14,872 nt of DNA from Comamonadaceae bacterium. GTDB lineage: Bacteria; Pseudomonadota; Gammaproteobacteria; Burkholderiales; Burkholderiaceae_C. The stretch covers positions 1-14,872 of the forward strand of contig QYPA01000124.1 of the NCBI GenBank assembly GCA_007279715.1. The letters run 5' to 3'. Position 1 is the first letter of the stretch; each line of letters opens with the position of its first letter. Positions 1-14,435 of this stretch are shown here, piece by piece. The position numbers and the translations under genes are program-made. The notes beneath the pieces were generated by a model, which was given only the letters and a program-made list of their open reading frames with translations, had not been told where the DNA came from and did not search any database.

Positions 1-7
1 TGTTTTT

Positions 8-52
8 TGGTGGCCCGGGGCGGAATCGAACCACCGACACAAGGATTTTCAA
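8..52 (-). other. 3' 45 nt of a tRNA-Phe(GAA) gene (anticodon loop through CCA) lacking the 5' half; att-type repeat marking an integrative-island border
   Basis: Minus strand reads TTGAAAATCCTTGTGTCGGTGGTTCGATTCCGCCCCGGGCCACCA. This gives the GAA anticodon-loop context, T-arm GGTGG-TTCGATT-CCGCC, acceptor 3' strand CCGGGCC, discriminator A and CCA. The sequence 5' of it (53-100) has no D-arm and no complementary acceptor 5' strand (GGCCCGG). Confidence 0.8.
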
Positions 53-198
53 CTCTGATTGACCGCTTCGATTTTGTTCTAAATCAAGCGGCTTAAACGC
101 TGAAAACTTTTCGTGTGCGCCAAACCGTATTTTAACACGCGCTGAGCGCGTGCGCCAACAGTCCCTATATGTTACTCGACTCGCGCTCATCTGAGACC

Positions 199-639
199 CT
201 AGCGCTTGAAACCAGAGCGCAGCTTGTTGGCAGCAATCTCAATTTGCGCATCCAATTCACCCGATAAAACTGAAGACTGAATCAGCTCAAGCGTAGCTAC
301 AAGTTCTTTGTCGCTGACCAACTCCACTGCAAATTTTCCTTTTGCAAGTTCCAGCAGCCGTGCACCGTAACGCACGCTCAAAGACAGCTTGCGATTTTCT
401 GCTGTGAACCACCACTGCTTGACCCGTTTGCTGGTTTCCACAAGCTTTCGTAGCCCTGTTTCTTTGTCTGTGATGCTGCGCATTTTGACGGCGGAGAACT
501 GTGCTCCTGTTTGTTGCGCTTTGGCTAAATCAATTTGCTCTTGCAAACGTTTGCTCATCTTTTCCCTGCGTAGCTGTACGGGCGAGAAGTTGGTGGGTTT
601 TACAGCTGCGGTGAGCTTGAGGGTTGCGAAATTGGACAT
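199..639 (-). CDS. hypothetical protein, 146 aa, basic/helical; no assignable function
   Basis: ORF 199-645. The second ATG (637-639) lies about 8 nt after an AAAGGAAA Shine-Dalgarno-like run, whereas the first ATG is too close to it. No catalytic motifs recognised. It is divergent from the 1048 gene across a repeat-rich 400-bp region. Confidence 0.7.
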   Translation of the reverse strand: MSNFATLKLTAAVKPTNFSPVQLRREKMSKRLQEQIDLAKAQQTGAQFSAVKMRSITDKETGLRKLVETSKRVKQWWFTAENRKLSLSVRYGARLLELAKGKFAVELVSDKELVATLELIQSSVLSGELDAQIEIAANKLRSGFKR

Positions 640-738
640 GTGCATTTCCTTTCATTTGTTGTGAATGCACAGTGGATTGTGTGATCAAACGCCATTAAGG
701 ACGACCTCTTTCGCGCTGTCTTGTCAGGTCCATGCGAG

Positions 739-757
739 GTGTCGTTTTGCACGACAG
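739..757. repeat. palindrome family copy C: GTGTCGT-TTTGC-ACGACAG
   Basis: 7-5-7 inverted repeat read directly, in the divergent intergenic region between the 199-639(-) and 1048-1542(+) genes. Confidence 0.8.
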
Positions 758-830
758 TTCAATTTCGCCAAATTACCTACAAAAGACCACGATTAATTAG
801 GCATTTCTTTGTCGAGGGATAAATATTTGC

Positions 831-858
831 GAGTTGCGATGAGTTGCTAAAGAGTCGC
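831..858 (+). repeat. three direct repeats GAGTTGC / GAGTTGC / GAGTCGC spaced 10-11 bp
   Basis: gagttgcgat gagttgctaa agagtcgctg read directly. They carry the same GTTGC core as the adjacent heptad array. Confidence 0.7.
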
Positions 859-870
859 TGAATCAAAAAC

Positions 871-898
871 GTTACACGTTACTAGTTACAAGTTGCTG
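871..898 (+). promoter_or_regulatory. array of four contiguous 7-bp units GTTRC-NN (gttacac gttacta gttacaa gttgctg); candidate protein-binding heptad array
   Basis: Exact 7-bp periodicity read directly. It is the reverse complement of the motif in the 928-969 array. Confidence 0.65.
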
Positions 899-927
899 TA
901 TTTGGGACAAATGAGAAGCCCTGATTG

Positions 928-969
928 GCAACACGTGACTAGTAACTGGCAACCAGAAACGTGCAACGT
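928..969 (+). promoter_or_regulatory. array of six contiguous 7-bp units GNRAC-NN (gcaacac gtgacta gtaactg gcaacca gaaacgt gcaacgt), inverted relative to 871-898
   Basis: Exact 7-bp periodicity. GYAAC is the complement of GTTRC. Further GCAAC copies lie at 992-996, 1008-1012, 1017-1021 and 1028-1032, running up to the RBS of the 1048 gene. Confidence 0.65.
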
Positions 970-1047
970 CTTTTGATCTCTGTGACTTGGTGCAACCCCT
1001 GCACCCAGCAACCAGCGCAACTCCCACAGCAACTAAAGGAGATTGAC

Positions 1048-1542
1048 ATGCTGACCACCCCTGATACCCACACCACAGATACCACCCATACCACCCCCGC
1101 ACTGGCAGTGCGATTGTTTGATAACCAAAAGTACGGAACCACCTACGGCAAAGGCGTCTATCGACGGGCTTTGTACAACGGCACCGTGGACATCATGCAC
1201 CCCCAAGCCAAGTACTTGATTGATCTGTTCTCCTACCAAGACTGGATGAACCAAGCCCGCACAGACCAGCAAATGGCCGCCATTGACAGCGTACAAGAAG
1301 ACAAAGATGCACTGTTTAGCTGGATACAACGCTATGACCCCAAAAGCAAGAGCAAAACACTGGTGTCAGGCGTGTGCGTGTTCAGTCTTGCCAACATGAG
1401 CCTGCAGATGGTGATTCAAGACGATGCCAGTGACCTATGCAACCACTGGCAACTGGATGTTCGCCACTGCCGCCAAGCCGCCACAAACCAAAGCTCCCCG
1501 CAGTTGTTGGCCACCAATACAGACTTGGAGGTATTCAAATGA
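1048..1542 (+). CDS. hypothetical protein, 164 aa, with Thr/His/Pro-rich N-terminus
   Basis: ORF 961-1542. An internal ATG at 1048 is preceded by AAGGAG (1036-1041) at good spacing. The upstream 29 codons overlap the repeat arrays and are probably not translated. Confidence 0.65.
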   Translation: MLTTPDTHTTDTTHTTPALAVRLFDNQKYGTTYGKGVYRRALYNGTVDIMHPQAKYLIDLFSYQDWMNQARTDQQMAAIDSVQEDKDALFSWIQRYDPKSKSKTLVSGVCVFSLANMSLQMVIQDDASDLCNHWQLDVRHCRQAATNQSSPQLLATNTDLEVFK

Positions 1543-1584
1543 ACCCTGCCAAATCTATCAACTCGATCACCAAGGAGCACAACC

Positions 1585-2046
1585 ATGCGCATTGCTGAAA
1601 TTGCAGATCCACAGTCTGCGCTGGGTTTGTGGAAACTCATCAGCGACAACACATGGGCAGCACTTGAACAGCAGGCACAGCAGCAAGCCCAAGAGCAGCA
1701 GCAAAAAAGTGCTGCCAAAGCCAAACACGCCAAGTCCGGGGGTGGCAAACGAACCCCTGCCCGCATACCGCGCGGGCCTAGGCCGCCCGCGACTCCTGGG
1801 CCCAAAGCGCAAAGTGCGCAAAGCACAGATCAAAGTACAGCGCTGAGCAATCCCAGCATGCCCCAGCCTTCAACTGTCACGCACTCTGTCACGCCCACTG
1901 CCCTGCGAAAGGGCCCGTTTGGGGCAACGGGCACGACATTGCCCTCAACAACAGCAGCACTACCCAAACCCACAGCAGCGCAACCCGCTGGAGAATTGGA
2001 CCAACCCGCGCTCAAAGCCATTGCTGGGGGGATGACGCGGGCGTGA
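1585..2046 (+). CDS. hypothetical protein, 153 aa: ~30-aa structured N-terminus followed by a Gln/Lys/Pro/Thr/Ala-rich low-complexity tail
   Basis: ATG at 1585 is preceded by AAGGAG (1573-1578). The composition suggests a largely disordered protein. No family recognised. Confidence 0.6.
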   Translation: MRIAEIADPQSALGLWKLISDNTWAALEQQAQQQAQEQQQKSAAKAKHAKSGGGKRTPARIPRGPRPPATPGPKAQSAQSTDQSTALSNPSMPQPSTVTHSVTPTALRKGPFGATGTTLPSTTAALPKPTAAQPAGELDQPALKAIAGGMTRA

Positions 2047-2337
2047 TTGCTTGGGTAAGTAGAGCTAGCAGCACAGCGCAGAGTGCGTAAAACCACGTTT
2101 GCTGCGCTGATCTAGCCCTGTCAGCTGCCCAACTAGCTGAAATAGCACAGGGCGCTGCTGCGCTTGGTTTGGAGTTTGGGCTAAATAGCTTGACCAAAGA
2201 AAAGCACACTTTTATTAACCGCGTTGATTTCATTGAGGTTTTTAGTCCTGCCATTTCGGCGGGACTTTGGTTGTCCTTTTTTGCAAAAGAAAACACACTT
2301 GTTGATGCGTTTTTTATTTATAAAAAGGAACAAACCC

Positions 2338-2904
2338 ATGTCTCAAGCCAAAACACTGACCCCAGCGGAAATTGATCACCTGCTGACCTACATCGCACAA
2401 CGCAGCTTTGCCATGCGCAATCGCCTGATGTTTTTGACAGGCCTATGGTCTGGCGTTCGCGTGGGAGAAATTGCCAGCCTTAGCGTGGGCGATGTGAGAA
2501 ACGCCGATGGCAGCGTCAAAGCAGAGATACGCTTGACTGCGCAGCAGACCAAGGGACGCCAACCCCGCACGGTGTATTTGCCCCAGAAACTGCGCGATGC
2601 GCTGCAGGAGTATGTTGATCTGCGCAGCACCTGCCCTGCATCCCACCCCTTGTTCATTACAGCGGGGCGCAAGGCATTCACCGCCAATGTGATGTCACAG
2701 CACTTCTTTTGGTTGTTCAAGCGAGCGGGGATTGCAGGTGCCAGTAGCCATTCGATGCGGAGGACTTTTTTAACCTCGTTGGCATCCAAGGGAATCAGTA
2801 TTCGGGTGCTGGCAAGTTTGGCAGGGCACCGTTCGATTCAGGTGACTATGAAATATCTGGATGCATCCGATGACATGAAGCGGCGGGCGGTGGAACTTGT
2901 TTGA
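2338..2904 (+). CDS. small tyrosine recombinase, catalytic domain only (188 aa; FimB/FimE-sized)
   Basis: ATG 2338 follows AAGGAA (2325-2330). The catalytic signature is complete: R in GVRVGE, K in QQTKGRQPRTVYLP, H-x-x-R in HSMRRT, H in LAGHRS and Y in TMKYL. Only ~35 residues precede box I, so there is no SAM-like core-binding N-domain. Confidence 0.85.
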   Translation: MSQAKTLTPAEIDHLLTYIAQRSFAMRNRLMFLTGLWSGVRVGEIASLSVGDVRNADGSVKAEIRLTAQQTKGRQPRTVYLPQKLRDALQEYVDLRSTCPASHPLFITAGRKAFTANVMSQHFFWLFKRAGIAGASSHSMRRTFLTSLASKGISIRVLASLAGHRSIQVTMKYLDASDDMKRRAVELV

Positions 2905-2923
2905 CTGGTCGCGTGGTCATACG

Positions 2924-2942
2924 GTGTCGTGTTGAACGACGC
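2924..2942. repeat. palindrome family copy D: GTGTCGT-GTTGA-ACGACGC
   Basis: Read directly. It starts 20 nt after the recombinase stop codon, between convergent genes. Confidence 0.75.
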
Positions 2943-2964
2943 TTTACGCCGCAGTCGAGTCCTG

Positions 2965-3489
2965 TTATCGCTTGGTAGCAGTGAGAGTGACTTTGGTTTT
3001 TGGGTCAAGGTCTTGATCAAAAACCCAAGTTTTTCCATCGAAAGACTTGGTCACATAGGCTGTGGTCTCACCTTTCATAAATCGATCAGTAAATGATTTT
3101 TCCATACTTGCGATGTCATCTTTATCAGTCACAACTTGGTCATTCACGAGATATTTTTTAATATCAATTTTTCCGTCGATGGTCTTATCAAAAACCGTCT
3201 GGTCCTTCACACTCCAGTCACCAGTAGCCCTGGCGGCGCCCTCTACCTCTATTTTTAGTCCGCCATCTTTTCCCGTCATTGATATTGCCATATCGCATTC
3301 GTGAGTGAGGGACTTGTTGGGGAAGAACTCGCTCACACACTTGAGCACCATTTGACCGTTTATATTTTCGTCAGTCACTGGCTGGGTGATCTCATATGCC
3401 CACTTGCCCACTACATCTTTTTCCAGCGTTTTCCCACATCCTGTCAATACCAAAGCGCCTGCCAATACGATCCAAACGGCTCTTTTCAT
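2965..3489 (-). CDS. putative lipoprotein, 174 aa
   Basis: N-terminus MKRAVWIVLAGALVLTGCGK gives a signal peptide plus lipobox L-T-G-C. GGAG lies 8-9 nt upstream of the ATG. The gene is visibly more AT-rich than both flanks. Confidence 0.8.
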   Translation of the reverse strand: MKRAVWIVLAGALVLTGCGKTLEKDVVGKWAYEITQPVTDENINGQMVLKCVSEFFPNKSLTHECDMAISMTGKDGGLKIEVEGAARATGDWSVKDQTVFDKTIDGKIDIKKYLVNDQVVTDKDDIASMEKSFTDRFMKGETTAYVTKSFDGKTWVFDQDLDPKTKVTLTATKR

Positions 3490-3588
3490 TTCAACTGCTC
3501 CAACGATAGATGATGTAAAAATTTAGCGCCGCAATGTATCAGTAAAGAATGGCAGAGAAGACTTCGCATTTCCGCGTGACACAACGCT

Positions 3589-4590
3589 TCATGCCAATAG
3601 GTCAGTCTCGCCTGCTACAAACTTTGACCAAATTTCAATGAACCTGGGCTCTGTCATTGCCAACCCTGAAGGCAACCTATTCTTCATCTTGATACGGGTC
3701 TCCAGTTCGTGCTGGTAGTTTTCCCTGAGCCAGGCGCGCCAAGGTGAATCCGCATGTGTTTCAGCGCTGGTGGCTTCCAGATACGCCTTGTGATTCCGCT
3801 TGCCAAAAGGATATTGGATGGGCTCGATCTTGGTGGCATTGGGAAACGAGCCTTGCTCTGCATGCAGCACCATGCGCTGCGCTTTGTAGAGAAACCGCCC
3901 AATGGTGCTTTGCATGCGTTCCACAGGGCTTGTCTGCCTGCTAAAGCGCCAGCGCTCCACATCACGCACATTGAGCCCTGGCGCTGCCTTTAGCCTGTCG
4001 CCAATGCGCCATACCGCGATGTTGGGATACAGCAGTCGATACAGCAAGATCCAGTAGCCCCGTTCCAGCGCGGCGGGTGTCATGCGCTTGGTGTGCAGAC
4101 GCCACCGCGCTTGGCTGCTTGCCAGCACATCCAGCGCCCTGCCTTCATGGTGCTGGCGCAGGATCTCGCGAAACTGGCTCACGATGGTTTGCTGGGTGAT
4201 GGTCAAGGGCACTTCAATCACCACGCTCTTGCCAGCGGGGTAGAACACAAACTCGCCCAAGTTCTGCTCATCCACCAAGCGCACTTTGGCTGGACGCTGG
4301 GCTTCTTCCAGCAGCAAGTAGCCCGTGGTTCGCCACCATTGGCGGAAGTTGTCTTGCGTCAAGTCGCCTGCTTGCGTGAAAGTTATGGCGGTTTGGGGAT
4401 CCACAGGCTCCAGCCCGCTGTGTCTGGCATACCAAAACACGGGGCTCAGGCGCAGATAGTTCCACCACCAGAAGTAAGCCGTGCGCGATGCAGCCTCCAG
4501 CACAGCCTCTTCAGAGGCTCTGGTAAAGCCAGGAATCCCCTTGTAAAAGCCTGTTTGCGGACGCTTCATGCTGGGCACTATAACAATCAT
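3589..4590 (-). CDS. hypothetical Trp/Arg-rich protein, 333 aa (start possibly at Met8, 4569)
   Basis: Long ORF with the motif AYFWWWNYLRLSPVFWYA near the N-terminus. It is divergent from the 4699 gene. No enzymatic motif recognised. The antisense shadow ORFs are rejected. Confidence 0.75.
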   Translation of the reverse strand: MIVIVPSMKRPQTGFYKGIPGFTRASEEAVLEAASRTAYFWWWNYLRLSPVFWYARHSGLEPVDPQTAITFTQAGDLTQDNFRQWWRTTGYLLLEEAQRPAKVRLVDEQNLGEFVFYPAGKSVVIEVPLTITQQTIVSQFREILRQHHEGRALDVLASSQARWRLHTKRMTPAALERGYWILLYRLLYPNIAVWRIGDRLKAAPGLNVRDVERWRFSRQTSPVERMQSTIGRFLYKAQRMVLHAEQGSFPNATKIEPIQYPFGKRNHKAYLEATSAETHADSPWRAWLRENYQHELETRIKMKNRLPSGLAMTEPRFIEIWSKFVAGETDLLA

Positions 4591-4698
4591 TACGACTTCG
4601 GCGCAAATGGTGTTATGTGGATTTCAATACTCTTTATCAGCAATGCAACAGACAAATCGTCCTAGCCCCTTGCTGGTGGCTCAACGAAAGGAAATACC

Positions 4699-5559
4699 AT
4701 GAGCAATATCGCCACTCCCGTCGCCGCCCTGCAATCCACAGAGGCATCCACCAACCCCGCCGCACAAGGTGTCGTTTCACACGACACCCCAAACGGCGAA
4801 ACCCTGGTCCAGGGTCACAAGGCAATGCACGCCAGCATCGAACAACTGGTGTTGGAGCGTGAAGTTTGGCAAGAAAACGCCTTTCGCACCAGCAACGAGC
4901 AGTTGTATGGCTTGCTGCAACGCTGCTACGGGCTCTACAAAGCCATGTGCGAGGACTCCGCAGAGGCAAAGGCGCTGCGCGAAGGGCTGCGCACCTACAT
5001 CGGTCTCAAAGGGCATGTGTTCTCCCCCAGCACCCACACCTTGACTCGCATCGTCAAGTGCGTGTTTGGCAGCGACCGCCGTCGCGTGAGCGCCTACAGC
5101 ATCGTGCTGCGCTCTGCGCTGGCACAAAGCGTGGGCGTGATGGATGTGGCGCGGTTCATCCGCGACGCAGGTGGTGTGGAAGAAGTGCGCCTTGCCAAGG
5201 CTCCCAACGCCATGAGCGCCAAGCAGAAGGCGCTGGTGACCAGCAGTGTGCTGGCATACAAGAACATGGGCGTGTTCAGCAGCGCAGCACTCAGCGGCTC
5301 GTTCAACGATGTTGCCAAGGCTGGCACACAGACGGTGCTGATTGGCGTTTGGCAGGCTGATGGCTCTGTGGTGGTGCAGGCAGTGGTGGAAAGTGCCACT
5401 GCGCTGAACGCGGCTCTTGCCAGCCACCACGGCGAGGTGCGTGATGCTGCCAAGAAGCAGGCAGCGCAGGCACAGGAGAGCAGCAGAGCAGACAGCAAGG
5501 ACGCTGCTATCCAAGCCGCCGCTGCCACAGCGGTGATCGCTGAAGCAGTTCCAGCCTAA
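4699..5559 (+). CDS. hypothetical protein, 286 aa (disordered ends, helical Ala-rich core)
   Basis: ATG 4699 is preceded by AAAGGAAA. The 4777-5514(-) ORF and other overlapping ORFs are GC-driven shadows. Palindrome copy A lies in codons 24-30. Confidence 0.75.
   Translation: MSNIATPVAALQSTEASTNPAAQGVVSHDTPNGETLVQGHKAMHASIEQLVLEREVWQENAFRTSNEQLYGLLQRCYGLYKAMCEDSAEAKALREGLRTYIGLKGHVFSPSTHTLTRIVKCVFGSDRRRVSAYSIVLRSALAQSVGVMDVARFIRDAGGVEEVRLAKAPNAMSAKQKALVTSSVLAYKNMGVFSSAALSGSFNDVAKAGTQTVLIGVWQADGSVVVQAVVESATALNAALASHHGEVRDAAKKQAAQAQESSRADSKDAAIQAAAATAVIAEAVPA
4769..4788. repeat. palindrome family copy A: GTGTCGT-TTCAC-ACGACAC(C), 20/20 identical to 6291-6310
   Basis: Read directly. It lies inside the CDS and encodes (G)VVSHDT. 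Confidence 0.85.
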
Positions 5560-5565
5560 AGCCGC

Positions 5566-5598
5566 ACGGGGCAGTGTGATCGCTGCCCCGTTGTTTGA
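5566..5598 (+). terminator. hairpin ACGGGGCAG-N8-CTGCCCCGT followed by TGTTTGAT; possible attenuator or weak terminator between the 286-aa gene and the ATPase gene
   Basis: 9-bp GC-rich stem read directly, starting 7 nt after the stop at 5559. The T-tract is only moderate. Confidence 0.45.
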
Positions 5599-5623
5599 TC
5601 AACTTGATTTGAAGGAGAACTAT

Positions 5624-6313
5624 ATGTTCAGCGATTTTGAGGAGCGTTTTGGTCCCAAGTGCATAGATGACATCGTGTTTGCCACCCAGCAGCACAGGGA
5701 TCTCATTGAGGATCTGATCACGGGTCAGCGTCCATTTCCCATCACGGAAGGCAAATGCGGCATATTGCTGTATGGCATTCCAGGCACTGGTAAGAGTGCG
5801 TTGGCGAAACTACTGCCAGATGCCATGGAGGCAGCGCGAGGAGGCATGAGTTCTGGGGCAATGTATGTGCGGGTGCAGCCAGGCGCTAATGGCTTGAAGA
5901 TGGTCACTCATATAGCCAACGCAGCCATTCTGATGCCGCTGGGCAAGTATCGTTACTTCGTGCTGGACGAGGTGGATCAACTGACCAAGGAAGCCATGGC
6001 GATCCTGAAGTCCGTGATGAACCAACGCGGCACGGTGTGGGTGCTGACCACCAACGACTTCACTGCCATTGAATCTGGCGTGCGGGATCGCTGCCACTGC
6101 ATCCCATTCAACGCAGCACCCGCAGAGCGCTGGTTGCCACTGGCGCGGCGCATGCTTGCTCATGCGGGTGTGAGTGGCGTGAGTGATGCACAACTGGCAG
6201 CGGTGATCCAGCCATGTGCGGGCAGCGCAAGGCAGATCATGGACGCGGTTATCACATTGGCACTTCGGGTGCGGCGTGCCAGTCAAGGCAGTGTCGTTTC
6301 ACACGACACCTAA
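5624..6313 (+). CDS. AAA+ ATPase of the clamp-loader (RFC / DNA Pol III gamma-delta') type, short form (229 aa)
   Basis: ATG 5624 follows GAAGGAG. Motifs present: Walker A GIPGTGKS, Walker B FVLDEVD, sensor-1 LTTN, SRC-like box VRDRCHCIPF and sensor-2 GSARQIMDA. It is too short to carry a C-terminal collar domain. Confidence 0.85.
   Translation: MFSDFEERFGPKCIDDIVFATQQHRDLIEDLITGQRPFPITEGKCGILLYGIPGTGKSALAKLLPDAMEAARGGMSSGAMYVRVQPGANGLKMVTHIANAAILMPLGKYRYFVLDEVDQLTKEAMAILKSVMNQRGTVWVLTTNDFTAIESGVRDRCHCIPFNAAPAERWLPLARRMLAHAGVSGVSDAQLAAVIQPCAGSARQIMDAVITLALRVRRASQGSVVSHDT
6291..6310. repeat. palindrome family copy B: GTGTCGT-TTCAC-ACGACAC(C), 20/20 identical to 4769-4788
   Basis: Read directly. 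It forms the last seven codons (SVVSHDT) of the ATPase gene, immediately before the TAA. Confidence 0.85.
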
Positions 6314-6351
6314 ATCAGCGAACCATTTGATGATTTGAATGGTTCATTCCT

Positions 6352-6387
6352 AGCCCGCTGGGGTAGCGGGCTGTTTCTATTTTGTTT
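6352..6387 (+). terminator. rho-independent terminator after the ATPase gene
   Basis: AGCCCGCT-GGGGT-AGCGGGCT (perfect 8-bp stem) followed by GTTTCTATTTTGTTT. It is preceded by a second hairpin, GAACCATT...AATGGTTC (6320-6345). Confidence 0.8.
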
Positions 6388-6398
6388 ATCTGATCTGT

Positions 6399-6426
6399 AA
6401 ATTATAAATTATAAATTATAAATTAT
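6399..6426. repeat. tandem heptanucleotide repeat (AAATTAT)x4
   Basis: aaattataaattataaattataaattat read directly, at the GC-rich to AT-rich junction. Confidence 0.9.
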
Positions 6427-6464
6427 TTAATGAATGAATCAGGCTGCAATATTATTCGACTAAG

Positions 6465-6671
6465 TTATTTTCTATTAACGCGGACGAATATTTCCTTATC
6501 AATTTCAGAAAATATTTTCTGATAAATTTCCGGACGAGATGTCATGTCATTTTCAGTAACTTCTTGCGATGTCGCACCAAGAAAACCTGTCTTGTAAATA
6601 GTCTCAGTTTCTTTGAGGGCCTCTTTTTGGCTTTGTTGGTTCAAGTTGTTTTCCTTAATGATTTCAACGAC
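6465..6671 (-). pseudogene. possible gene remnant or small ORF (68 sense codons, no ATG/GTG start)
   Basis: Minus-strand frame is open from just after a TAA (6672-6674) to the stop at 6465-6467. It translates as VVEIIKENNLNQQSQKEALKETETIYKTGFLGATSQEVTENDMTSRPEIYQKIFSEIDKEIFVRVNRK. The only candidate start is a TTG at codon 10. No family recognised. Confidence 0.25.
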
Positions 6672-6691
6672 TTAGCGTATTAATACGAAAA

Positions 6692-6730
6692 AACCAAAGC
6701 TAATACATAAAAGCTTTGGTTCTTTATTTA
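6692..6730. terminator. bidirectional intrinsic-terminator-like hairpin
   Basis: AACCAAAGCT-N10-AGCTTTGGTT (perfect 10-bp stem), flanked by an A-run upstream (cgaaaaaa) and CTTTATTTAT downstream. Confidence 0.55.
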
Positions 6731-6857
6731 TGGAAAATATTGTGGGATTTAAGCGACTTTGCTTTTTTACGCTCCCCAAGCTCAACACGCTTTTTTAACT
6801 GTGCCAGCTACCCAATGCTTCGCTCAGTGCTTCTAAACGTTTGTAGCTTGTTTTAGC

Positions 6858-7217
6858 GTGTCAGACTACCGCGACAAGAGCAACCCGGACAGGCCACGGC
6901 ACAAGACGATGACGCTTGGCGCCGATGAGTTCATGCGCCGCTTTCTGCTGCACGTATTGCCCAGTGGCTTTCACCGCATCCGCCACTTTGGCCTGATTGC
7001 CAACAACGGGCGCAAGGAGAAACTGGCGCTGGCTCGTGAGCTCTTGAACCTGAAGCCTGAGCTCAGCTGCGAGGTCAAGGCAAGCGAGACCGCCGATGAG
7101 CTAGCAGGGGCGAACTTTGTGTGTGCGCACTGCGGTGCGCAGATGATGGTTCTTGAGTCGTTGCTGCGCTGTCATTCAATTCGGGGGCCACCTCAATTGC
7201 GAGGTGAACTGTGTTGA
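6858..7217 (+). pseudogene. IS91-family (rolling-circle, HUH-type) transposase, C-terminal ~119 aa only
   Basis: The peptide contains MTLGADEFMRRFLLHVLPSGFHRIRHFGLIANNGRK and a C-terminal CAHCG motif. Both are characteristic of the C-terminal third of IS91/IS801-type transposases (~400 aa full length). The frame is closed by a stop just upstream, at an abrupt AT-to-GC composition switch. Confidence 0.75.
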
Positions 7218-7561
7218 CAAGCGTGCCGCATTGGCTATGTAGAAGACTGACGATGTCACTTGATACGTCAGATGGGGTAGGCTTGCGTCAAACTGCTCGA
7301 GCGGACTTTTTCACACAAATAGGCGGGGCAAATAACGCTCGATTTATTCGCTTGCTGTGCACTTGGCCAGTGGTGTACGCAGTGATCGCGCATCCCGACA
7401 ACAAGTTGGCACTCAACGGCAACATCAAATCGCCATAGCTCTTCTCTGATCGGGGCACTCGCTTGCCCCGCGGTTTCCTCCCTCGGGGCTTGTACGACGC
7501 CCACCCTTACGAATTATCGGGATGCACGTGGCTTGCCTACGCGGGTGGACATCCTACAACC
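6858..7561 (+). mobile_element. 5'-truncated IS91-family element remnant, including the putative ori-type end downstream of tnpA
   Basis: The transposase fragment is followed by ~340 bp of GC-rich non-coding tail. The tail has hairpin CGGGGCA-N6-TGCCCCG (7451-7470) and ends ...GCCTACGCGGGTGGACATCCTACAACC (7535-7561). From memory this resembles the ...CCTAT(A/C)CC termini of IS91/ISCR oriIS ends. Composition drops to AT-rich shortly after. Confidence 0.55.
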
Positions 7562-7726
7562 CTAAACAATTGCAGTCGTTCAGGCAAACCTAGAAAGTCT
7601 TGACGATTTCTCAACAGCAGTCATCCAGGCGTTTGTCAACTGTCTTGATGGAATGCCATAGTCAACAGACGCCACTATCTGCTGTTAAGTGACGCCCGTC
7701 GCGAGTAACGACGTTGTAAAGAGCTA

Positions 7727-9016
7727 TCAGCTTGTTTGTTTGATAGCTCGTTTAGCCCCTTCGATCAGTTTCTTCGCAGCCTCATCAATGGTGATCTTGC
7801 CAAAAGCCAGTTGGTCCGCAATGGGTCTTACTACTCCATTTTCAACCTCGATCGCACCCGCAGGTGAAGCGGGTGGATATGGCATCGTTACTTTTTCAAT
7901 TGATGAAATGAACTCTGCAGACATTTTTTCAATGTCGTTCAAGCTTGTCATGACTTCACTGCGCACTTTCAGGTTGGGAGGTATACCTCGTTCAACTTCA
8001 AGTGCTTTTCCTGCATTGATGTCATTGACAAATAAGTCAATGAACTTAACGGCTGCATCGATATTTTTTGCGTCTCGGCTGATACTCCAAACAAGACTTG
8101 GACGGTAAAAAGTGCCTGAAGGACCACCTTTTTTTGTAATCGGAAAAGTAGCAATACCCAGTTTGGCTTCTGGTAGCAACGTACTGAATGCGTTGAGATT
8201 ATTCGAATACAGCAAGGCGGCTGAGCAACTTCTTTGTGCCATTTCACTGCCGTCAGGAGTCATCAGACCTTTCGTTGAAACGTCTGCTGGTGTGCAACCA
8301 CCGGCTTTGCGAAGGTTTTCCCAATAGGTGTAGAACTCTCTGGCATCATCATAATCAAAACCCAATTTTTGATCTGCAGTGAAATAAAGTTTGCCACGCT
8401 GCATCATCCAAGCCTGCAACACATTTGTTTGGCGTGCACAGTATGGTGATGCCCAGTAGCGTCCACCGCCATTGGCTTTAGTGATCTCAATGGCCTGTTT
8501 TGCATACTCTTCCCAAGTTAATCCAAAAGTAGGCTCTGGAATCCCTGCCTTGGCATAAGCACGTTTGTCATAAATCATGGCAAAGGAATTGAGCGATTGG
8601 GCAATACCCATCATTTTGTTATCCACACGGCCGAGCTCAAGAATTCCTTTGCCCAAGTCCTTGGTCCGGATTGAACCTTTGGAGATGAAATCATCCAGAG
8701 AAATTAAAGCTGAACGGCGCGAGTAATCTGGTAGCGTATTGGGTTCCAGCTGAACAATGTCAGGCATGTTTCCACCTGCCATCATGGTATTTAATTTGGC
8801 CCAGTAGTCACTGGAAGTCTCCGCATTTGCGGTCAGTCCAGGATATGACTTGGCAAAAATCTCTGTAACGGCATTGGTGCGTTTGACACGATCGGGGGAG
8901 CCCCAATACATGATGCGCACATTTACATCAGCCGCTCGCGCAGATGGTGAAACTATGCTCGTGGCCATACTGGCCATGGCCAAACCGCTTTTCAATACTT
9001 GACGTCTGCTTTGCAT
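7727..9016 (-). CDS. ABC transporter extracellular solute-binding protein (carbohydrate type, family 1) with twin-arginine signal
   Basis: 429 aa. N-terminus MQSRRQVLKSGLAMASMATSIVSPSARA gives an S-R-R-x-x-L-K Tat motif plus an A-x-A cleavage site. AGGAG RBS. Last gene of the operon. Confidence 0.9.
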   Translation of the reverse strand: MQSRRQVLKSGLAMASMATSIVSPSARAADVNVRIMYWGSPDRVKRTNAVTEIFAKSYPGLTANAETSSDYWAKLNTMMAGGNMPDIVQLEPNTLPDYSRRSALISLDDFISKGSIRTKDLGKGILELGRVDNKMMGIAQSLNSFAMIYDKRAYAKAGIPEPTFGLTWEEYAKQAIEITKANGGGRYWASPYCARQTNVLQAWMMQRGKLYFTADQKLGFDYDDAREFYTYWENLRKAGGCTPADVSTKGLMTPDGSEMAQRSCSAALLYSNNLNAFSTLLPEAKLGIATFPITKKGGPSGTFYRPSLVWSISRDAKNIDAAVKFIDLFVNDINAGKALEVERGIPPNLKVRSEVMTSLNDIEKMSAEFISSIEKVTMPYPPASPAGAIEVENGVVRPIADQLAFGKITIDEAAKKLIEGAKRAIKQTS

Positions 9017-9095
9017 CGTAATCTCCTGGTTAGAGTGGTGGTAAGGGGAAAGTAGGGAATGAAAATGAATATGAAGGTTCGTTTAGTGGGCTGAT

Positions 9096-10193
9096 TCATA
9101 CGGCTTCAGGTCTTATCTGTTGAATAGTCAGACCGTTGGCATCGAACACATGCAAATGTGAGCGGTCGATAGCGAAAGGAATCTTTTGACCCGCCTGAAT
9201 CGGATGCTGCCCTGGCAGAGACATCGTGAGCGATTGACCATCTGATAACGAACCGTAAAGATAGACTTGGCCACCAAGTTGTTCGGTGTGTGTGACGGCC
9301 AATTCGCCCAGCAACCACGAACCTTCTGTCCAAAGTACAAGATGCTCAGGACGAAGCCCGAGAGTCAACTCCTGCTCATGAATAGTCAGTGCAAAAGGCA
9401 AATCAAAATCAGTACCAGAAAGTGAAAACCAAGCGCGTTCTTGCTCGTGCTTAAGAAATTTAATTTGAACCAAATTCATCTTGGGACTGCCGATAAAACC
9501 TGCAACAAATTTATTCACCGGATGGTTGTAGATCTCCAATGGACTACCTATCTGTTCCACATTTCCGGATCGCAAGACCACAATCTTTTCAGCCAAGGTC
9601 ATAGCCTCCACTTGGTCATGCGTCACATAGATCATGGTCGTACCAAGTTCTTTGTGTAAGGCAGCGATTTCAACCCGCATCTGAACTCGAAGTTCTGCGT
9701 CAAGGTTGGAGAGTGGTTCATCAAACAAGAACACCTTAGGGTCCCGAACGATAGCGCGCCCAATCGCAACACGCTGACGTTGACCTCCCGAAAGTTGTTT
9801 GGGCTTACGTGCTAACAGAGGTCCGATTTGAAGAATATGGGCAACCTTTGTAACCTTTGTTTCAATTTCACTTTTTGCCTCGCCCAGAGTTTGAAGCCCA
9901 AATGCAAGATTTTGGTAAACCGTCATATGGGGATATAAGGCATACGATTGGAAAACCATAGCAATTCCACGCATTGCGGGTGGTGTTTGATTGACGACCT
10001 CGCCATTCATGAGAATTCGGCCCTCACTGACCGTCTCCAGGCCCGCGATCATGCGCAGAAGGGTCGATTTTCCGCACCCAGAAGGACCAACAAAGACGAC
10101 GAATTCTCCGGCTTTGATTTCAAGACTCACATTGCGGATAATCTCATTGCTTTCAAATCGCTTGGTGACTTTATCTAGGAAAAGATCTGTCAT
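9096..10193 (-). CDS. ABC transporter ATP-binding protein, MalK/UgpC/MsmK type (365 aa)
   Basis: Walker A GPSGCGKST, Q-loop, signature LSGGQRQR, Walker B VFLFDEPLS and H-loop VTHD. A C-terminal regulatory (TOBE-like) extension is present. AAGGA RBS. Confidence 0.95.
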   Translation of the reverse strand: MTDLFLDKVTKRFESNEIIRNVSLEIKAGEFVVFVGPSGCGKSTLLRMIAGLETVSEGRILMNGEVVNQTPPAMRGIAMVFQSYALYPHMTVYQNLAFGLQTLGEAKSEIETKVTKVAHILQIGPLLARKPKQLSGGQRQRVAIGRAIVRDPKVFLFDEPLSNLDAELRVQMRVEIAALHKELGTTMIYVTHDQVEAMTLAEKIVVLRSGNVEQIGSPLEIYNHPVNKFVAGFIGSPKMNLVQIKFLKHEQERAWFSLSGTDFDLPFALTIHEQELTLGLRPEHLVLWTEGSWLLGELAVTHTEQLGGQVYLYGSLSDGQSLTMSLPGQHPIQAGQKIPFAIDRSHLHVFDANGLTIQQIRPEAV

Positions 10194-10213
10194 TGTTGTG
10201 TCCTTATCTGAAT

Positions 10214-11101
10214 TTATCGTTTCATGCCGGTAGTTGCTACGCCTTCAATCAACATTCGTTGAAAGAAAAGAAACACGATAAAAACGGGCAGCAATGCCAA
10301 TGTGGACATGGCAAACAAACCTACCCAATCGGAAATCGAAGTTGCGTCAATAAAGGAGCGCAAGCCGAGTTGAACTGTGTAAGACTTCATCTCATTCAAA
10401 TAAATCAGTGGCCCAAAAAAGTCCCCCCAACTCCAAATAAAAGAAAAGATGGCAGTGGTTGCAAGTACTGGCATTGAAAGGGGTAGCAATATTTTTAAAT
10501 AGATGCGCCACGGGCCGCATCCATCCATTTGAGCAGCTTCGTCTAACTCTTTAGGTATGCCCCTGAAAAATTGGACCATTAGAAAAATGAAGAAGGCATC
10601 AATAGCAAAAAATTTAGGGACAACAAGTGGCAGATAAGTATCCAGCCACCCAATTTTCAAGAACATGACGTACTGGGGGATCATCACGGCATGCTGAGGC
10701 ATCATGAGTGTGCCAAGCATGATTGCAAACCAAAAGTTTCGACCCTTGAAGTTCAATCGAGCAAAAGCAAAAGCAGTTACCGAGCACGACATGACATTGC
10801 CAATCACGGTTAACACCGATATGAGCAAAGAGTTCCAGGCAAAGGTTCCAAATGAATAAGTCAGCGCAGACCAGGCTTCTTTGTAATTTTTTAAGTTTAG
10901 AACACTGGGTATAAGAGAAAAATTATTCAAAATTTCCCCATTGGTTCTGAATGAACTTGCCACCATCCAAAGCAGGGGATAGAGCATGAATACTGAAAAT
11001 ACAAGTAAAAGAATATGCAGAGACAATGAGACAAGAAATCCGCTAGATTGGCCATTATTCTTGATAGGGCGCATCAAAAAATTGAGCTTTCTACTCGTCA
11101 T
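10214..11101 (-). CDS. carbohydrate ABC transporter permease (MalG-like), 295 aa
   Basis: Multi-TM protein with EAA loop EAAQMDGCGPWRIYLKILLP. Its start overlaps the upstream permease stop by 11 nt (translational coupling). Confidence 0.9.
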   Translation of the reverse strand: MTSRKLNFLMRPIKNNGQSSGFLVSLSLHILLLVFSVFMLYPLLWMVASSFRTNGEILNNFSLIPSVLNLKNYKEAWSALTYSFGTFAWNSLLISVLTVIGNVMSCSVTAFAFARLNFKGRNFWFAIMLGTLMMPQHAVMIPQYVMFLKIGWLDTYLPLVVPKFFAIDAFFIFLMVQFFRGIPKELDEAAQMDGCGPWRIYLKILLPLSMPVLATTAIFSFIWSWGDFFGPLIYLNEMKSYTVQLGLRSFIDATSISDWVGLFAMSTLALLPVFIVFLFFQRMLIEGVATTGMKR

Positions 11102-12014
11102 AGTGCACCCACAATTTGGATGTTAAAAATGCGATAGCTGTGAAGCTGGCAATGATCACAATGAGAATCCAAGCCAATGCAGAAGCGTTACCCATGCGCA
11201 AATATGCAAATGCTTCTTGATAAAGGTAAAGGGTATAAAACAGAGTGCTGTTGACTGGTTCACCTGTACCCCCACTGATAATGAAGGCCGGCGTAAACGC
11301 TTTGAACGCCTCGATGGTTTGCATCACAGCATTGAAAAAAATGACTGGCGTCAGCAAAGGCAATGTGATTTTAAAAAACTGCCGGACAGGCCCTGCGCCA
11401 TCAATGCTTGCGGCCTCATACATGTCTCGTGGAATTTGTCTTAATCCGGCCAAAAAAATGATCATTGGTGAGCCAAATTGCCATATGCTCAAAATGATCA
11501 AGGTGTCTAATGCATGATCCGGCGTAGTGATCCATCCAGGTCCTTCATAGCCCATCAGTCGCATTAAGTAAGTGGCAAGCCCATCAGTTGAAAAGAATTG
11601 GCGCCAAAGAATTGAAATTGCCACGCTGCCACCCAGAAGGGATGGAAGATAGAAGATGGCTCTGTAAATGGAAAGACCACTAAGCCCTTTATTAAGAATC
11701 ATCGCCACGGCCAATGCCGCCACTAATTTCAGCGGAACAGACAGAACCACATAGACAAAAGTAACATGCAAAGCATCCCGAAATTTTGAATCTTCTGTGA
11801 GGATGCGGGCGTAATTCTCAAGCCCCACCCAAACTGGCGGCCTGGCTAAGTCGTATTCAGTGAAGGAAAGATAAAGTGAAGCAATCGTCGGACCAAATGT
11901 AAAAAGGAAAAATCCTGTCAGCCAGATCATTAAAAATTTATAGCCACTCAATTCATGGACCCATCGATCTGTCCATCGATCTTTTCGGGGAATGTCGGTG
12001 CTTGAGGATTTCAT
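11091..12014 (-). CDS. carbohydrate ABC transporter permease (MalF/UgpA-like), 307 aa
   Basis: Multi-TM protein with EAA loop EAASIDGAGPVRQFFKITLPLL. Confidence 0.9.
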   Translation of the reverse strand: MKSSSTDIPRKDRWTDRWVHELSGYKFLMIWLTGFFLFTFGPTIASLYLSFTEYDLARPPVWVGLENYARILTEDSKFRDALHVTFVYVVLSVPLKLVAALAVAMILNKGLSGLSIYRAIFYLPSLLGGSVAISILWRQFFSTDGLATYLMRLMGYEGPGWITTPDHALDTLIILSIWQFGSPMIIFLAGLRQIPRDMYEAASIDGAGPVRQFFKITLPLLTPVIFFNAVMQTIEAFKAFTPAFIISGGTGEPVNSTLFYTLYLYQEAFAYLRMGNASALAWILIVIIASFTAIAFLTSKLWVHYDE

Positions 12015-12035
12015 GGAGATGCAAGCGAATGCTTC

Positions 12036-13856
12036 TTAAACTTTGCCTATAGATTTATTGACCGGTGTTGTGCAATTTTTTGCCCAATCGGCATAAATCT
12101 CGGAAACTTTTTGAAATGAAATTTTCTTATGCTGTCTGTCGCTTGCAATTAGCCCTTTCAGATTGATACCCCGTTGAAAACTGTTTTGTCGGCGTTCAGT
12201 TCTAAAGTCATAGAGGACCCATGGTGAAATTCCGCGGATGTAACTTGCCTTTTTCAACATCTTTAATTGTGTTTCTAAAATCAAAGATTGGTTCTCCTCT
12301 GAATAACGATCAGAGTGTTCGCCATGCAGACCGGGTAATGCATCTGCACCTGTTTCAGTAATGACGATGGGTTTGGTGGGATTTGAGTTATTCAGCAACT
12401 GAGACAATCCCTCAAAAGAAGGCTCATACCAACCGAAATATTCGTTGATGCCAATGACATCCAGTACTTCACTGAGTCGATCTTGGATTTGAAATGTTTC
12501 CCTGTTAATTAGGCATGCAGCAGAGATCAATCGCGTGTCATCTGCTTTGCGCGCAGCAGCAGCTAACCGTGACATGAAACTCAGTCTCGCGTCAGTGTCA
12601 TGATTTTCATTTCCTACGCCCCAAAAAATGATACTGGAACGGTTTCGGTCACGTCTTATCAACTCTTGCAGTTGATTGTTCGCATCATTGAATGTGTCTG
12701 GGTTACCGAAATCTATTGCCCAATACACAGGGATTTCTGCCCATAATAAGATCCCTAATTCATCTGCAATGCTTGCAACAAGTTCATGGTGAGGGTAGTG
12801 GGATAGTCGAATGAAATTTGCATTCAGTTCTTTGGTATGTCGAAGCATGTCACGTACTGTTTGTTCATTGGATACTTTTCCGATCGGCAGGTTTTCCTCG
12901 TGGACGCTGATGCCACGTAAAAACAAGTCTTCCCCATTCAATAACAGTCGGTCACCATGGCACCTTATTTGACGAAAGCCCACCTGGTCGAGTATCGCGT
13001 CTGTCCCGTAACTAACCTTGATTTCGTAAAGTTTCGGATTGTCCGGGCTCCATGCTTGGAAATCTAAATTGATTTTTTTGACACCCTTCCCCGCGACCAA
13101 CACCATCTCAAATACTTGATCAAGTTCGGGCAATTCAATCTGCGCGACGCCATCAATCGGTTCGGAAAGACAAACTTCGAATTGAATCTCCTTGCGCGCA
13201 GGCTCATTAATCCAGGCAGCGTGGAAGTCTTGAATAAAAACGGCAGGCAGAACGACAAGGCAAACCTCTCGATACAGCCCGCCGTAGTTAAACCAGTCAG
13301 TGTGATTCATGGGCACGCGGTCTGCGCGACAACGGTTTTCAACCTGGATCTGCAGAAGATTGTTCAAAGGTTCCAAGTTCGCGCTGAGTTCGATGAAAAA
13401 TGGCGTGGAGCCACCTTGATGGCTACCCATAAATCGACCGTTCAAGAACACCCGTGCTTCATAGTTGGCTGCACCCACACGCAAGAAAATGCGATCTTTT
13501 TTGGAAGACGGTGGTGAGTCAAATGTTCGGGAATACCATGCACTGCCTTCAAAGTGAAACCACTCGGGACGCACAGTATTCCAGCACGATGGAACTTTGG
13601 TCGTTTGCCAATGGGCATCATCGTAGTCTAGGGGCGGGGAATCCTTTGAGTGGGACTTGTTTTGAATCTCATACCACCGCTGCCTGAGTCCTTCGTCATG
13701 CGGGTCAATCACAAAATTCCAAACGCCATCCAAGCTTACTGTTGCCCGGCCTGCCATGGTGATGAGATTGGCCGCTTGGACTCTGCCAGCAGCAAATGGC
13801 TTCGCATAGTCTTCATCATGCAGATGAGCATAAGGGTCCTTGACGAGCGATTCCAT
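12036..13856 (-). CDS. glycoside hydrolase family 2 enzyme, beta-glucuronidase/beta-galactosidase-like (606 aa)
   Basis: Collinear with the GusA-type layout: LDGVWNF..., HQGGSTPF, NFIRLSHYPH, acid/base region FWGVGNE and nucleophile region VITETGADA. Its length matches ~600-aa GH2 glucuronidases. GAGG RBS. Confidence 0.9.
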   Translation of the reverse strand: MESLVKDPYAHLHDEDYAKPFAAGRVQAANLITMAGRATVSLDGVWNFVIDPHDEGLRQRWYEIQNKSHSKDSPPLDYDDAHWQTTKVPSCWNTVRPEWFHFEGSAWYSRTFDSPPSSKKDRIFLRVGAANYEARVFLNGRFMGSHQGGSTPFFIELSANLEPLNNLLQIQVENRCRADRVPMNHTDWFNYGGLYREVCLVVLPAVFIQDFHAAWINEPARKEIQFEVCLSEPIDGVAQIELPELDQVFEMVLVAGKGVKKINLDFQAWSPDNPKLYEIKVSYGTDAILDQVGFRQIRCHGDRLLLNGEDLFLRGISVHEENLPIGKVSNEQTVRDMLRHTKELNANFIRLSHYPHHELVASIADELGILLWAEIPVYWAIDFGNPDTFNDANNQLQELIRRDRNRSSIIFWGVGNENHDTDARLSFMSRLAAAARKADDTRLISAACLINRETFQIQDRLSEVLDVIGINEYFGWYEPSFEGLSQLLNNSNPTKPIVITETGADALPGLHGEHSDRYSEENQSLILETQLKMLKKASYIRGISPWVLYDFRTERRQNSFQRGINLKGLIASDRQHKKISFQKVSEIYADWAKNCTTPVNKSIGKV

Positions 13857-13875
13857 CTATACAACCTCTGATCTT

Positions 13876-13889
13876 GGTAAACGTTTACC
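13876..13889. promoter_or_regulatory. perfect 14-bp palindrome GGTAAACGTTTACC: LacI/GalR-family operator (or cre-like site) 20 nt upstream of the GH2 start
   Basis: It matches the TGNAANCGNTTNCA-type operator pattern of LacI-family regulators and lies between the putative promoter and the RBS of the operon. Confidence 0.7.
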
Positions 13890-13923
13890 TAAATAATGAT
13901 GTATGTAATCGCATTATTATCCT

Positions 13924-14364: not shown

Positions 14365-14435
14365 TTTAGAGTTAAGGTTAATCGTGAGTTACAACAGATG
14401 TGGAAATTGAAGGCAAAAAACCTCACAAACCTAGT

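Follow-up and report, generated by a model that had tools for sequence, protein, structure and literature searches.

A 14,872-nt stretch of DNA from a Comamonadaceae bacterium (Pseudomonadota, Burkholderiales; assembly GCA_007279715.1, contig QYPA01000124.1, positions 1 to 14,872; hereafter the window) carries a genomic island in which a short palindrome recurs between gene modules. The same palindrome was found in related islands, which form a widespread and so far undescribed family of small islands in freshwater bacteria, and we conclude that it is a protein-recognition site marking the module boundaries of this family. The sites are under selection at the DNA level, occupy conserved positions, and coincide with the junctions between core modules and hypervariable cargo. 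With regard to the recognizing protein, we favor, at about an even chance, the reading that the palindromes are crossover sites of the island's own Xer-like recombinase, which consists of a catalytic domain only, in the manner of pdif or integron sites.

The original prediction for this DNA, made from the window alone, had reported an exact 20-mer, GTGTCGTTTCACACGACACC, on the plus strand at 4769-4788 and again at 6291-6310, with a spacing of 1522 bp, and we confirmed this repeat. It was also correct that the two copies lie in one codon phase, each being read as VVSHDT (GVVSHDTPN in the 286-aa protein p286 and SVVSHDT-stop in the adjacent AAA+ ATPase), and that recombination between them would produce a 30-codon open reading frame (ORF). 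It had missed that the 20-mer is an inverted repeat, GTGTCGT-TTCAC-ACGACAC, that the likeness of the two copies extends about 12 nt rightward (28 of 32 positions identical), and that the window holds more copies, at 739-757, 2924-2942 and 14436-14454 (degenerate) and at 3573-3595 (decayed). We scanned the window and 21 related loci, numbered here with the prefix L, for the motif GTGTCGT-N5-ACGACAC, requiring a match at 12 or more of the 14 arm positions. As a result, 100 sites were identified in the 22 loci, compared with 1.25 in shuffled sequence. Because this excess comes together with the absence of any such 20-mer match from 200 dinucleotide-preserving shuffles of the window, a chance origin is excluded.

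The position matrix built from the 100 sites describes a 21-bp palindrome, R-GTGTCGT-K-T-W-A-M-ACGACAC-Y, in which the site spans 19-21 bp, the arms span 7-9 bp, and T9 and A11 are conserved at the center. The sites are island-restricted, and the six of L021 are all located between two tRNA-Phe repeats. L022 additionally contains a distinct, related perfect palindrome, GTGTCGGTT-S-AACCGACAC, three times (6522, 16458 and 17842), within and past its cargo with metal-transport genes.

The copies in the window stand at positions that recur across the family. S1 (GTGTCGTTTTGCACGACAG, 739-757, 13 of 14 arm positions matched) lies in a divergent intergenic region, 94 bp 5' of the start of the DUF6641 gene; it is equally placed in L001, L002, L003, L008, L012, L021 and L057, and across the family it is found about 95 bp upstream of DUF6641. 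S2 (GTGTCGTGTTGAACGACGC, 2924-2942, 13 of 14) lies 19 bp past the stop codon of YR188, a 188-aa tyrosine recombinase, and forms the left junction of a lipoprotein cassette; all lineages have a site 4-19 bp past the YR188 stop. The decayed right-hand copy of S2 (3573-3595) marks the far end of this cassette, and its counterpart in L001 is intact and identical to the left copy. S3, the first exact copy (GTGTCGT-TTCAC-ACGACAC followed by C, 4769-4788), covers codons 24-30 of p286; a site occupies this position in all 18 distinct p286 loci, and across the family it is found at about codon 24. S4, the second exact copy (6291-6310), makes up the last seven codons of the ATPase and is the left edge of the variable cargo, and in other members it lies at the ATPase 3' end or slightly past it, usually ahead of a terminator. 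The right edge of the cargo is S6 (GTGTCGGGTAACACGACAA, 14436-14454, 12 of 14), with the cargo operon on one side and the large integrase gene, by its 3' end, on the other; across the family it is usually found 10-25 bp past the large integrase stop. A third recombinase paralogue of 405 aa, found in L021, also overlaps a site with its 3' end.

The original prediction had further suggested that the 1.5-kb unit of p286 and ATPase was inserted or duplicated through the repeat, and the corresponding reading would be a cassette that is excisable as a precise 1522-bp unit. What speaks for this is that the window's clade (the window, L002, L021, L025 and L045) has identical copies in direct orientation, with the likeness continuing about 12 nt further right, and that other small cassettes of the family are bracketed by identical copies. 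However, the relatives tell a different history. The distance between S3 and S4 is 1521-1547 bp in nine lineages whose p286 proteins share 40-97% identity, so that both positions persist even where protein identity has fallen to about 40%. The copies differ outside the window's clade, often in spacer orientation as well, with S3/S4 spacers of GTTAC/GTAAC in L001, GTTAA/TTAAC in L003, GGAAA/TTAAC in L009 and GCAAA/TTAAA in L011, and with differing copies in L010 as well; in L001 and L003 they are also mutually inverted. Since both positions are conserved in relatives with differing copies, the pair is an ancestral feature and did not arise by recent insertion or duplication; a recent duplication or a target-site duplication is rejected on the same evidence. 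Furthermore, every island has p286 and the ATPase among its core genes, the two flanks of S3 are always found together, and excision would destroy p286. Neither a deletion junction nor a circle junction was present among 43 exact 19-mer instances in 39 metagenome contigs. We consider an excisable 1522-bp cassette quite improbable.

Two further suggestions of that prediction fared differently. The common reading phase had been taken to suggest a history of cassette-type or site-specific exchange; rather than marking in-frame exchange, it follows from the fixed in-frame position in p286, where the site has been held since the ancestor of the family, and the phase at the ATPase tail is not conserved. 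The idea of cassette-type exchange fails for the p286/ATPase unit and holds for the site family, in which breakpoints cluster at sites, identical copies bracket cassettes, and one flank meets many partners, as detailed below.

The copies within genes allowed us to ask at which level the site is constrained. In 18 of 18 distinct p286 sequences, S3 has the identical phase. The first valine of the site is encoded by GTC in 17 of 17 cases, compared with 17% of the valine codons elsewhere in these genes, and its aspartate is encoded by GAC in 18 of 18 cases against a background of 57%, whereas the variable residues map to the spacer. About half of the site copies are non-coding. This codon usage indicates that selection on the site acts at the DNA level, and the suggestion that it is a specific site tolerated in coding sequence was thus borne out, with synonymous positions fixed to the DNA motif. 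The site is thereby a clean natural case of a DNA element constraining synonymous codons.

At the protein level, 106 of 120 p286 homologues contain VVx[NH]D[TSNIK], eight of them twice. Depending on the frame, the palindrome encodes V-V-x-[HN]-D-T, V-S-[CF]-x-T-T or C-R-x-T-R-H. Coding copies, whichever their strand, are in the first frame, as in SVVEHDT on the minus strand of a Limnohabitans DUF6641 gene; the cysteine- or arginine-containing peptides of the other frames may plausibly contribute to the fixed phase. The tail of the L001 ATPase reads the site in frame 1 as ASCNTT. Among 120 ATPase homologues, 62 end in VV, with a TAA or TGA stop inside the spacer, and 30 end in VVx[NH]D and a short remainder, so that 92 terminate within or slightly past the site; the ATPase merely runs into the site at a dispensable tail. 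A functional peptide VVxxDT as the primary cause is excluded by the non-coding copies, the fixed synonymous positions, the other frame used in L001, and the 62 ATPases that stop within the site. As a separate observation, a conserved p286 peptide, AVV[EQ]SDT, is encoded by DNA that matches the site at 12 of 14 positions in L005 (2875), L011 (10656), L020 (10074) and L022 (10692); the equivalent partial match in the window (about 5383-5401) falls below this threshold, and it may be due to chance or represent a third p286 site.

To relate the sites to island mosaicism, we collected homology breakpoints, defined as the internal ends of high-scoring segment pairs with at least 85% identity between loci. 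Of 419 breakpoints, 87 fell within 30 bp of a site, compared with 15.2 expected. For example, homology between the window and L021 spans from the interior of S2 to 11 bp beyond S4, and homology between L021 and L002 breaks 5 bp past S2 and 1-3 bp ahead of S6. Clustering of the flanking sequences showed at least 15 different partners across the site for the flank on the integrase side, and three for the flank on the ATPase side. The YR188-side flank has the lipoprotein cassette, hyp333 type A and hyp333 type B as partners; six pairings of YR188 type and partner are possible, and five of them were observed. For the hyp333-side flank, the partner is either YR188 or another gene. From S4 to S6, nearly every contig has cargo of its own, ranging from 0.34 to 8 kb, while the cores are 85-97% identical.

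Several small segments are delimited by site copies. In L001, the lipoprotein gene is bracketed by identical direct sites at 3909 and 4588. In L021, a 101-aa ORF following the ATPase is bracketed by identical copies at 11593 and 12242, the second of which is one base off in L002. A segment adjoining the integrase in L002 is flanked by a duplication of the site and the integrase 3' end, with differing spacers in the two copies. No cassette was found at different site positions: the lipoprotein cassette always follows YR188, and the 101-aa ORF always follows the ATPase. Larger rearrangements also meet at sites, since in two Polynucleobacter loci (L015 and L019) the block of hyp333, p286 and ATPase is inverted relative to the block of DUF6641 and YR188, with a variant site at both new junctions. 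A precise 8.45-kb deletion between S1 and S6, relative to L021, is seen in the 1.1-kb contig L030, whose positions 1-540 lead from S1 with its DUF6641 flank across a single palindrome into the large integrase gene at its 3' end; the coverage of this contig is very low, and it may be an assembly chimera at a 20-nt repeat. Limnohabitans islands additionally contain up to four copies of a conserved non-coding element of about 160 bp that ends in a site, each copy beside a different cargo gene (L012 1850-2030, 2553-2733, 16454-16634 and 17855-18035; L008 2203-2383 and 2704-2884; L013 4846-5026). It might act as a promoter, as the leader of a cassette or as an extended recombination site.

The identity of copies within an island was also higher than expected. 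From the matrix frequencies we estimate a chance of about 0.5% that two independent sites coincide in sequence. Ignoring orientation, 59 of 257 within-island site pairs share the spacer, compared with 25.6 expected, a number reached in none of 5000 permutations, and the excess persists when pairs with similar flanks are left out (22% versus 11%). The rare asymmetric spacer TTCAC is found in the window's clade at S3, S4, a duplicated S4 copy and S6, and also at S2 in L025 and S1 in L057, while other clades each have their own preferred spacer variant. Such sharing above expectation indicates that the sites have been homogenised within an island lineage.

These features are consistent with the palindromes being crossover sites. 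Each site would consist of two 7-8-bp inverted arms, each bound by one recombinase monomer, around an overlap region of 5-7 bp. The enzyme would be a tyrosine recombinase encoded by the island, with YR188 as the leading candidate. Crossover would take place either between the sites of two islands that are co-resident or in tandem, or between a circular cassette and a site already in place, whereby modules would be swapped and cargo gained or lost. Matching overlaps would be required between partners, and we propose that this requirement led to a lineage-wide asymmetric spacer, TTCAC in the window's clade, and thereby to the identity of the copies at 4769 and 6291. Recombination between islands at equivalent sites followed by internal deletion could likewise have produced the 49-280-bp flank duplications of the cassettes.

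YR188 is present in all complete related islands, and its gene is always followed by a site. Its catalytic residues, R..K..HxxR..H..Y, are readable in the sequence, and its closest solved structures are the catalytic domains of XerA and XerD. The site has the general layout of a tyrosine-recombinase core site, namely inverted arms around a center of 5-7 bp, with YR188 and its catalytic residues nearby. We also noted several peculiarities of the recombinase genes. In L020 (9703-10231, Limnohabitans lacus HM2-2), residues 1-97 of YR188 are fused to residues 204-280 of p286; S2, hyp333 and S3 are lost in this fusion, whose junction lies away from any site. The 405-aa protein mentioned above is encoded on the cargo side of L021 (13933-15150) and is a third tyrosine-recombinase paralogue. 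At about position 6070 of L039 and L059, a 3' fragment of YR188 abuts a 3' fragment of the large integrase gene head-to-head, which suggests recombination between recombinase genes. Remnants of tandem islands are visible in L003, L015, L039 and L059.

Several observations weigh against the assignment of the palindromes to a recombinase, and a number of them would be accommodated by a protein of another kind. The consensus is symmetric through its center, a perfect 9+1+9 palindrome whose half-sites degenerate independently, and such symmetry is more usual where a dimeric protein binds DNA than in a free overlap region. The sites may thus be operator, roadblock or centromere-like sites of a dimeric DNA-binding protein of the island, possibly DUF6641, hyp333, p286 or hyp164, that coordinates island expression. 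The module junctions would then be incidental: the sites would be the only conserved sequence that otherwise unrelated modules have in common, and hence the point at which homologous or microhomology recombination shows up. Consistent with this, S1 lies within the divergent promoter region of DUF6641 and hyp164, S6 of the window lies upstream of the cargo operon, S3 keeps a position near +70 of p286 in almost all homologues, some of which have it twice, and site pairs 45-120 bp apart in tandem are common, some of them flanking terminators. The 160-bp element of Limnohabitans ends in a site beside each cargo gene, and four core proteins have no known fold or function. The flanks of S3 were never found recombined, and the joint at S2 is a conserved block of 75-85 bp, at which homologous recombination could act and give the same mosaics. 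At the ATPase end, moreover, the spacer flips between close relatives with both flanks unchanged, being TTCAC in 12 contigs and GTGAA in four. The TTCAC form is found in the window, L021, L024, L025 and others, where the ATPase has 229 aa (ending VVSHDT-stop), and the GTGAA form in L033, L038, L050 and L055, where it has 225 aa (ending VV-stop); this suggests that spacer orientation is neutral.

Other observations also count against crossover sites. YR188 aligns only to residues 165-307 of XerA and lacks a core-binding domain. The repeats around cassettes reach 49-280 bp past the palindrome. The deletion contig L030, given its very low coverage, could be chimeric. No inversion of the cargo between the inverted S4 and S6 was seen, 24 contigs of one population had a single arrangement only, and the 39 metagenome contigs gave no junction from S3 and S4.

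The operator alternative has its own difficulties. Searches of the core proteins gave no helix-turn-helix, ParB or other DNA-binding domain or fold, no sigma-70-like promoter was detected beside S1 or S3, and half of the conserved positions lie between convergent gene ends rather than in promoters. A symmetric binder would leave the sharing of asymmetric spacers at non-homologous positions unexplained, and it would not account for the sharp cargo junctions at the palindrome or for the regular placement after recombinase genes. We regard operator-like sites as the main alternative, though on the unlikely side.

The flip at the ATPase end looks like hairpin-loop inversion, and a nucleic-acid hairpin was considered as well. 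A REP-like (repetitive extragenic palindrome) hairpin at gene 3' ends might stabilise mRNA or pause transcription or replication without a dedicated protein. An 8-bp stem with a 3-nt loop is possible, many copies stand at 3' ends directly ahead of terminators, and loop flipping is typical of hairpin-forming palindromes. However, the arm sequence is invariant and not just complementary, positions 8 and 12 vary without covariation, and no compensatory arm mutations were seen in relatives. Promoters and the 5' end of a coding region also contain copies, the sites are specific to the islands and not genome-wide, and there was no Rfam match and no U-tract. A hairpin function is thus very improbable, and the least probable of the readings considered here. 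REP palindromes of the kind that occur genome-wide as extragenic hairpins together with a Y1 HUH transposase, the REP-associated tyrosine transposase (RAYT), are also rejected: the sites are island-confined, about half of them are intragenic, and there is no RAYT gene. The only HUH gene is an IS91 fragment that is unique to this window.

We compared the islands with known systems built on short dispersed sites. The pdif (XerC/D-like) sites of the "dif modules" on Acinetobacter plasmids are short palindromes dispersed over the replicon that serve in module exchange and in the formation and resolution of co-integrates (PMC5790767). The island sites resemble them in being short, palindromic, dispersed, present in both orientations, and in bracketing gene modules. 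Unlike them, the island sites measure 19-21 bp with 7-9-bp arms and another sequence, whereas pdif sites have 28 bp (11-6-11) and use the host XerC and XerD. In addition, the islands are chromosomal and tRNA-associated, their candidate enzyme is island-encoded and has no N-terminal core-binding domain, and some copies lie within coding sequence. A Xer/dif site is rejected, since the 28-bp dif consensus with its 11-bp arms is not matched; to our knowledge, the island palindrome bears no resemblance to dif. YR188 is not a full-length Xer protein (about 300 aa), scoring 67.6 bits against the XerC cut-off of 335 and 62.6 against the XerD cut-off of 330.

The order of a recombinase gene, then a site, then variable cargo is reminiscent of integrons, as are imperfect palindromes at gene 3' ends and arms of 7 bp. 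In contrast, attC sites are 57-141 bp long, conserved in structure and recombined as folded single strands, and IntI has an extra domain, whereas the island sites are short and conserved in sequence. At 19-21 bp with an invariant arm sequence they are not attC sites, and YR188 is not an IntI integrase (43.8 bits against a cut-off of 265 for TIGR02249, and 25.6 against 435 for NF011946). A FimB/FimE-type invertase switch, with two inverted repeats around a promoter segment that occurs in both orientations, is similarly rejected: PRK09870 gives 42.6 bits, its cut-off being 221, and near-identical contigs yielded no segment present in both orientations. The protein is similar in size (about 200 aa).

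In shufflons (sfx sites with Rci) and in the Gin/gix and Cin/cix systems, a short recombinase site lies in-frame in coding sequence as a tolerated peptide. Those systems invert alternative C-terminal segments; the island sites have no alternative coding segments beyond them, most of their copies are intergenic, and the coding copies are located in a disordered N-terminus or a dispensable tail. Another comparison is offered by PAISt, in which modules are excised by the island's tyrosine recombinase at an internal copy of the short palindromic attachment site (att) (PMC4057263). PAISt is likewise a genomic island with internal copies of a short palindromic site. However, it is large and conjugative, and its 8-bp palindrome is the att itself, with one internal and two flanking copies. 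The islands described here have tRNA-Phe as att; their palindrome is distinct from it, with 4-9 copies inside the island.

KorB operators of IncP plasmids and ParB-parS systems have about 4-12 copies of a perfect 13-16-bp palindrome in promoter, remote or coding positions, together with a ParB/KorB protein and usually a ParA ATPase. The island sites are similarly scattered over a mobile element, some in promoters and some coding. These systems are rejected because none of the nine island proteins of the window and none of the gene calls of L021 and L022 has a PF02195-type domain. Tycheposons of Prochlorococcus are likewise small islands that integrate at tRNA genes in aquatic bacteria with streamlined genomes, and they combine a conserved recombinase module with nutrient-acquisition cargo that is exchanged rapidly; their core genes are unrelated to those found here, and we know of no internal palindromic joint site described for them. 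The nearest functional analogues are the pdif dif modules, integron attI/attC and PAISt and, for the coding copies, the in-frame sfx and gix sites. Wherever membership in these known systems was examined, the island sites fell outside it.

In the window, the island consists of a GC-rich core, followed by an IS91 fragment and then by lower-GC cargo comprising a sugar ABC transporter and a GH2 glycosidase. The core order is DUF6641, two hypothetical genes, YR188, lipoprotein, hyp333, p286 and the ATPase (AAA229). At the left end of the island, a 3' half of tRNA-Phe (6-52, minus strand) is a remnant of the attachment site. It is followed by the DUF6641 gene (199-645, minus strand), a core gene lying downstream of S1. 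YR188 (2338-2904, plus strand) matches PF00589 with an E-value of 1.5e-27. The lipoprotein gene (174 aa, 2965-3489, minus strand) forms a cassette of about 630 bp at S2 that is absent in L021 and L025. The gene of hyp333, a conserved protein of 333 aa (3589-4590, minus strand), is divergent from that of p286 (4699-5559, plus strand). The AlphaFold2 model of hyp333 had a predicted local distance difference test (pLDDT) of 78 and a predicted template modelling score of 0.76, and that of p286, with a disordered N-terminus carrying S3 and a helical core, had a pLDDT of 65. AAA229, a 229-aa AAA+ ATPase of the clamp-loader/RFC/RarA-like kind, occupies 5624-6313 on the plus strand (ATG at 5624, stop at 6311-6313), with S4 as its tail. 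The C-terminal 99 codons of the large island integrase, also a tyrosine recombinase, are located at 14573-14872 on the minus strand, and the gene runs past the window edge.

The order DUF6641 ... YR188 / hyp333 / p286 / AAA229 recurs in 20 genome loci of freshwater Burkholderiales, including Limnohabitans, Polynucleobacter and Rhodoferax isolates and metagenome-assembled genomes, as well as in many lake-metagenome contigs. Isolates with the island include Limnohabitans sp. MMS-10A-178, which has nine sites, L. lacus HM2-2 and Polynucleobacter meluiroseus AP-Melu-1000-B4. The islands are integrated at tRNA-Phe and range from about 8 to more than 15 kb. L021 is a complete relative of about 10.6 kb that adjoins tRNA-Phe, with a repeat of the tRNA 5' half on the opposite side. 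None of 524 p286 homologues is functionally annotated, and an automated "RarA" label is the sole functional annotation among more than 900 ATPase homologues. p286 had no match in Pfam, PHROG or PADLOC, and for both p286 and hyp333 there was no sequence match to any solved structure and no PDB fold match of the AlphaFold2 models at E <= 0.001. A known plasmid or phage element is rejected, as p286 had neither a DNA nor a protein match in PLSDB or INPHARED; a known defence system is rejected as well, PADLOC having returned only weak generic AAA+ matches (E >= 0.001). We found no paper mentioning DUF6641, and a broader literature search returned analogues and not this system.

Some further features of these islands were observed. 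The tRNA-Phe gene is used in two ways: a 3'-half remnant lies beside DUF6641 in the window, L018, L020 and L036, and a 5'-half repeat flanks the island in L021 (5633-5694 and 16625-16700) and L002. L015 has both kinds of island around a single tRNA gene (2987-3032, 8791-8868 and 18296-18334). Positions 820-1010 of the window, between DUF6641 and hyp164, contain three AGTTGC motifs followed by seven GCAAC motifs; this array includes a 26-nt inverted repeat (871-896 and 928-953) and could be iteron-like, operator-like or similar to an origin of transfer. Directly 3' of the site at the ATPase end, a conserved hairpin, GAACCATT..AATGGTTC, lies within 6320-6373. The intrinsic terminator at 6351-6373, past S4, is bracketed by two sites in L004, L017 and L022. 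Further on, positions 6380-7217 comprise an AT-rich stretch with a short tandem ATAAATT repeat (about 6400-6430) and then a C-terminal fragment of an IS91-family Y2 transposase (6858-7217); the AT-rich stretch and the fragment may be the arrival scar of the low-GC ABC-transporter and GH2 cargo.

Taken further, the crossover reading would mean that the tRNA-Phe islands of Limnohabitans, Polynucleobacter and Rhodoferax carry their own "universal joint," a 21-bp palindrome together with a minimal Xer-like recombinase of a catalytic domain only, that swaps modules and captures cargo and whose overlap is homogenised in each lineage. With sites set in-frame into genes, it would amount to a counterpart of pdif modules or integrons that the island encodes itself. 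We put this forward tentatively, at somewhat less than an even chance. Even if the palindromes were operators, their recognition sequence would define the regulon of an uncharacterised DNA-binding protein in a family with more than 500 p286 homologues. If they are a universal joint, abundant genome-streamlined lake bacteria would possess a compact, self-contained system for module shuffling and cargo capture, and the very small recombinase (188 aa) with its 21-bp site might serve as a tool. Such a system would explain why nearly identical island backbones carry different cargo in each contig, such as the sugar ABC transporter and GH2 glycosidase of the window and the metal transporters of L022.

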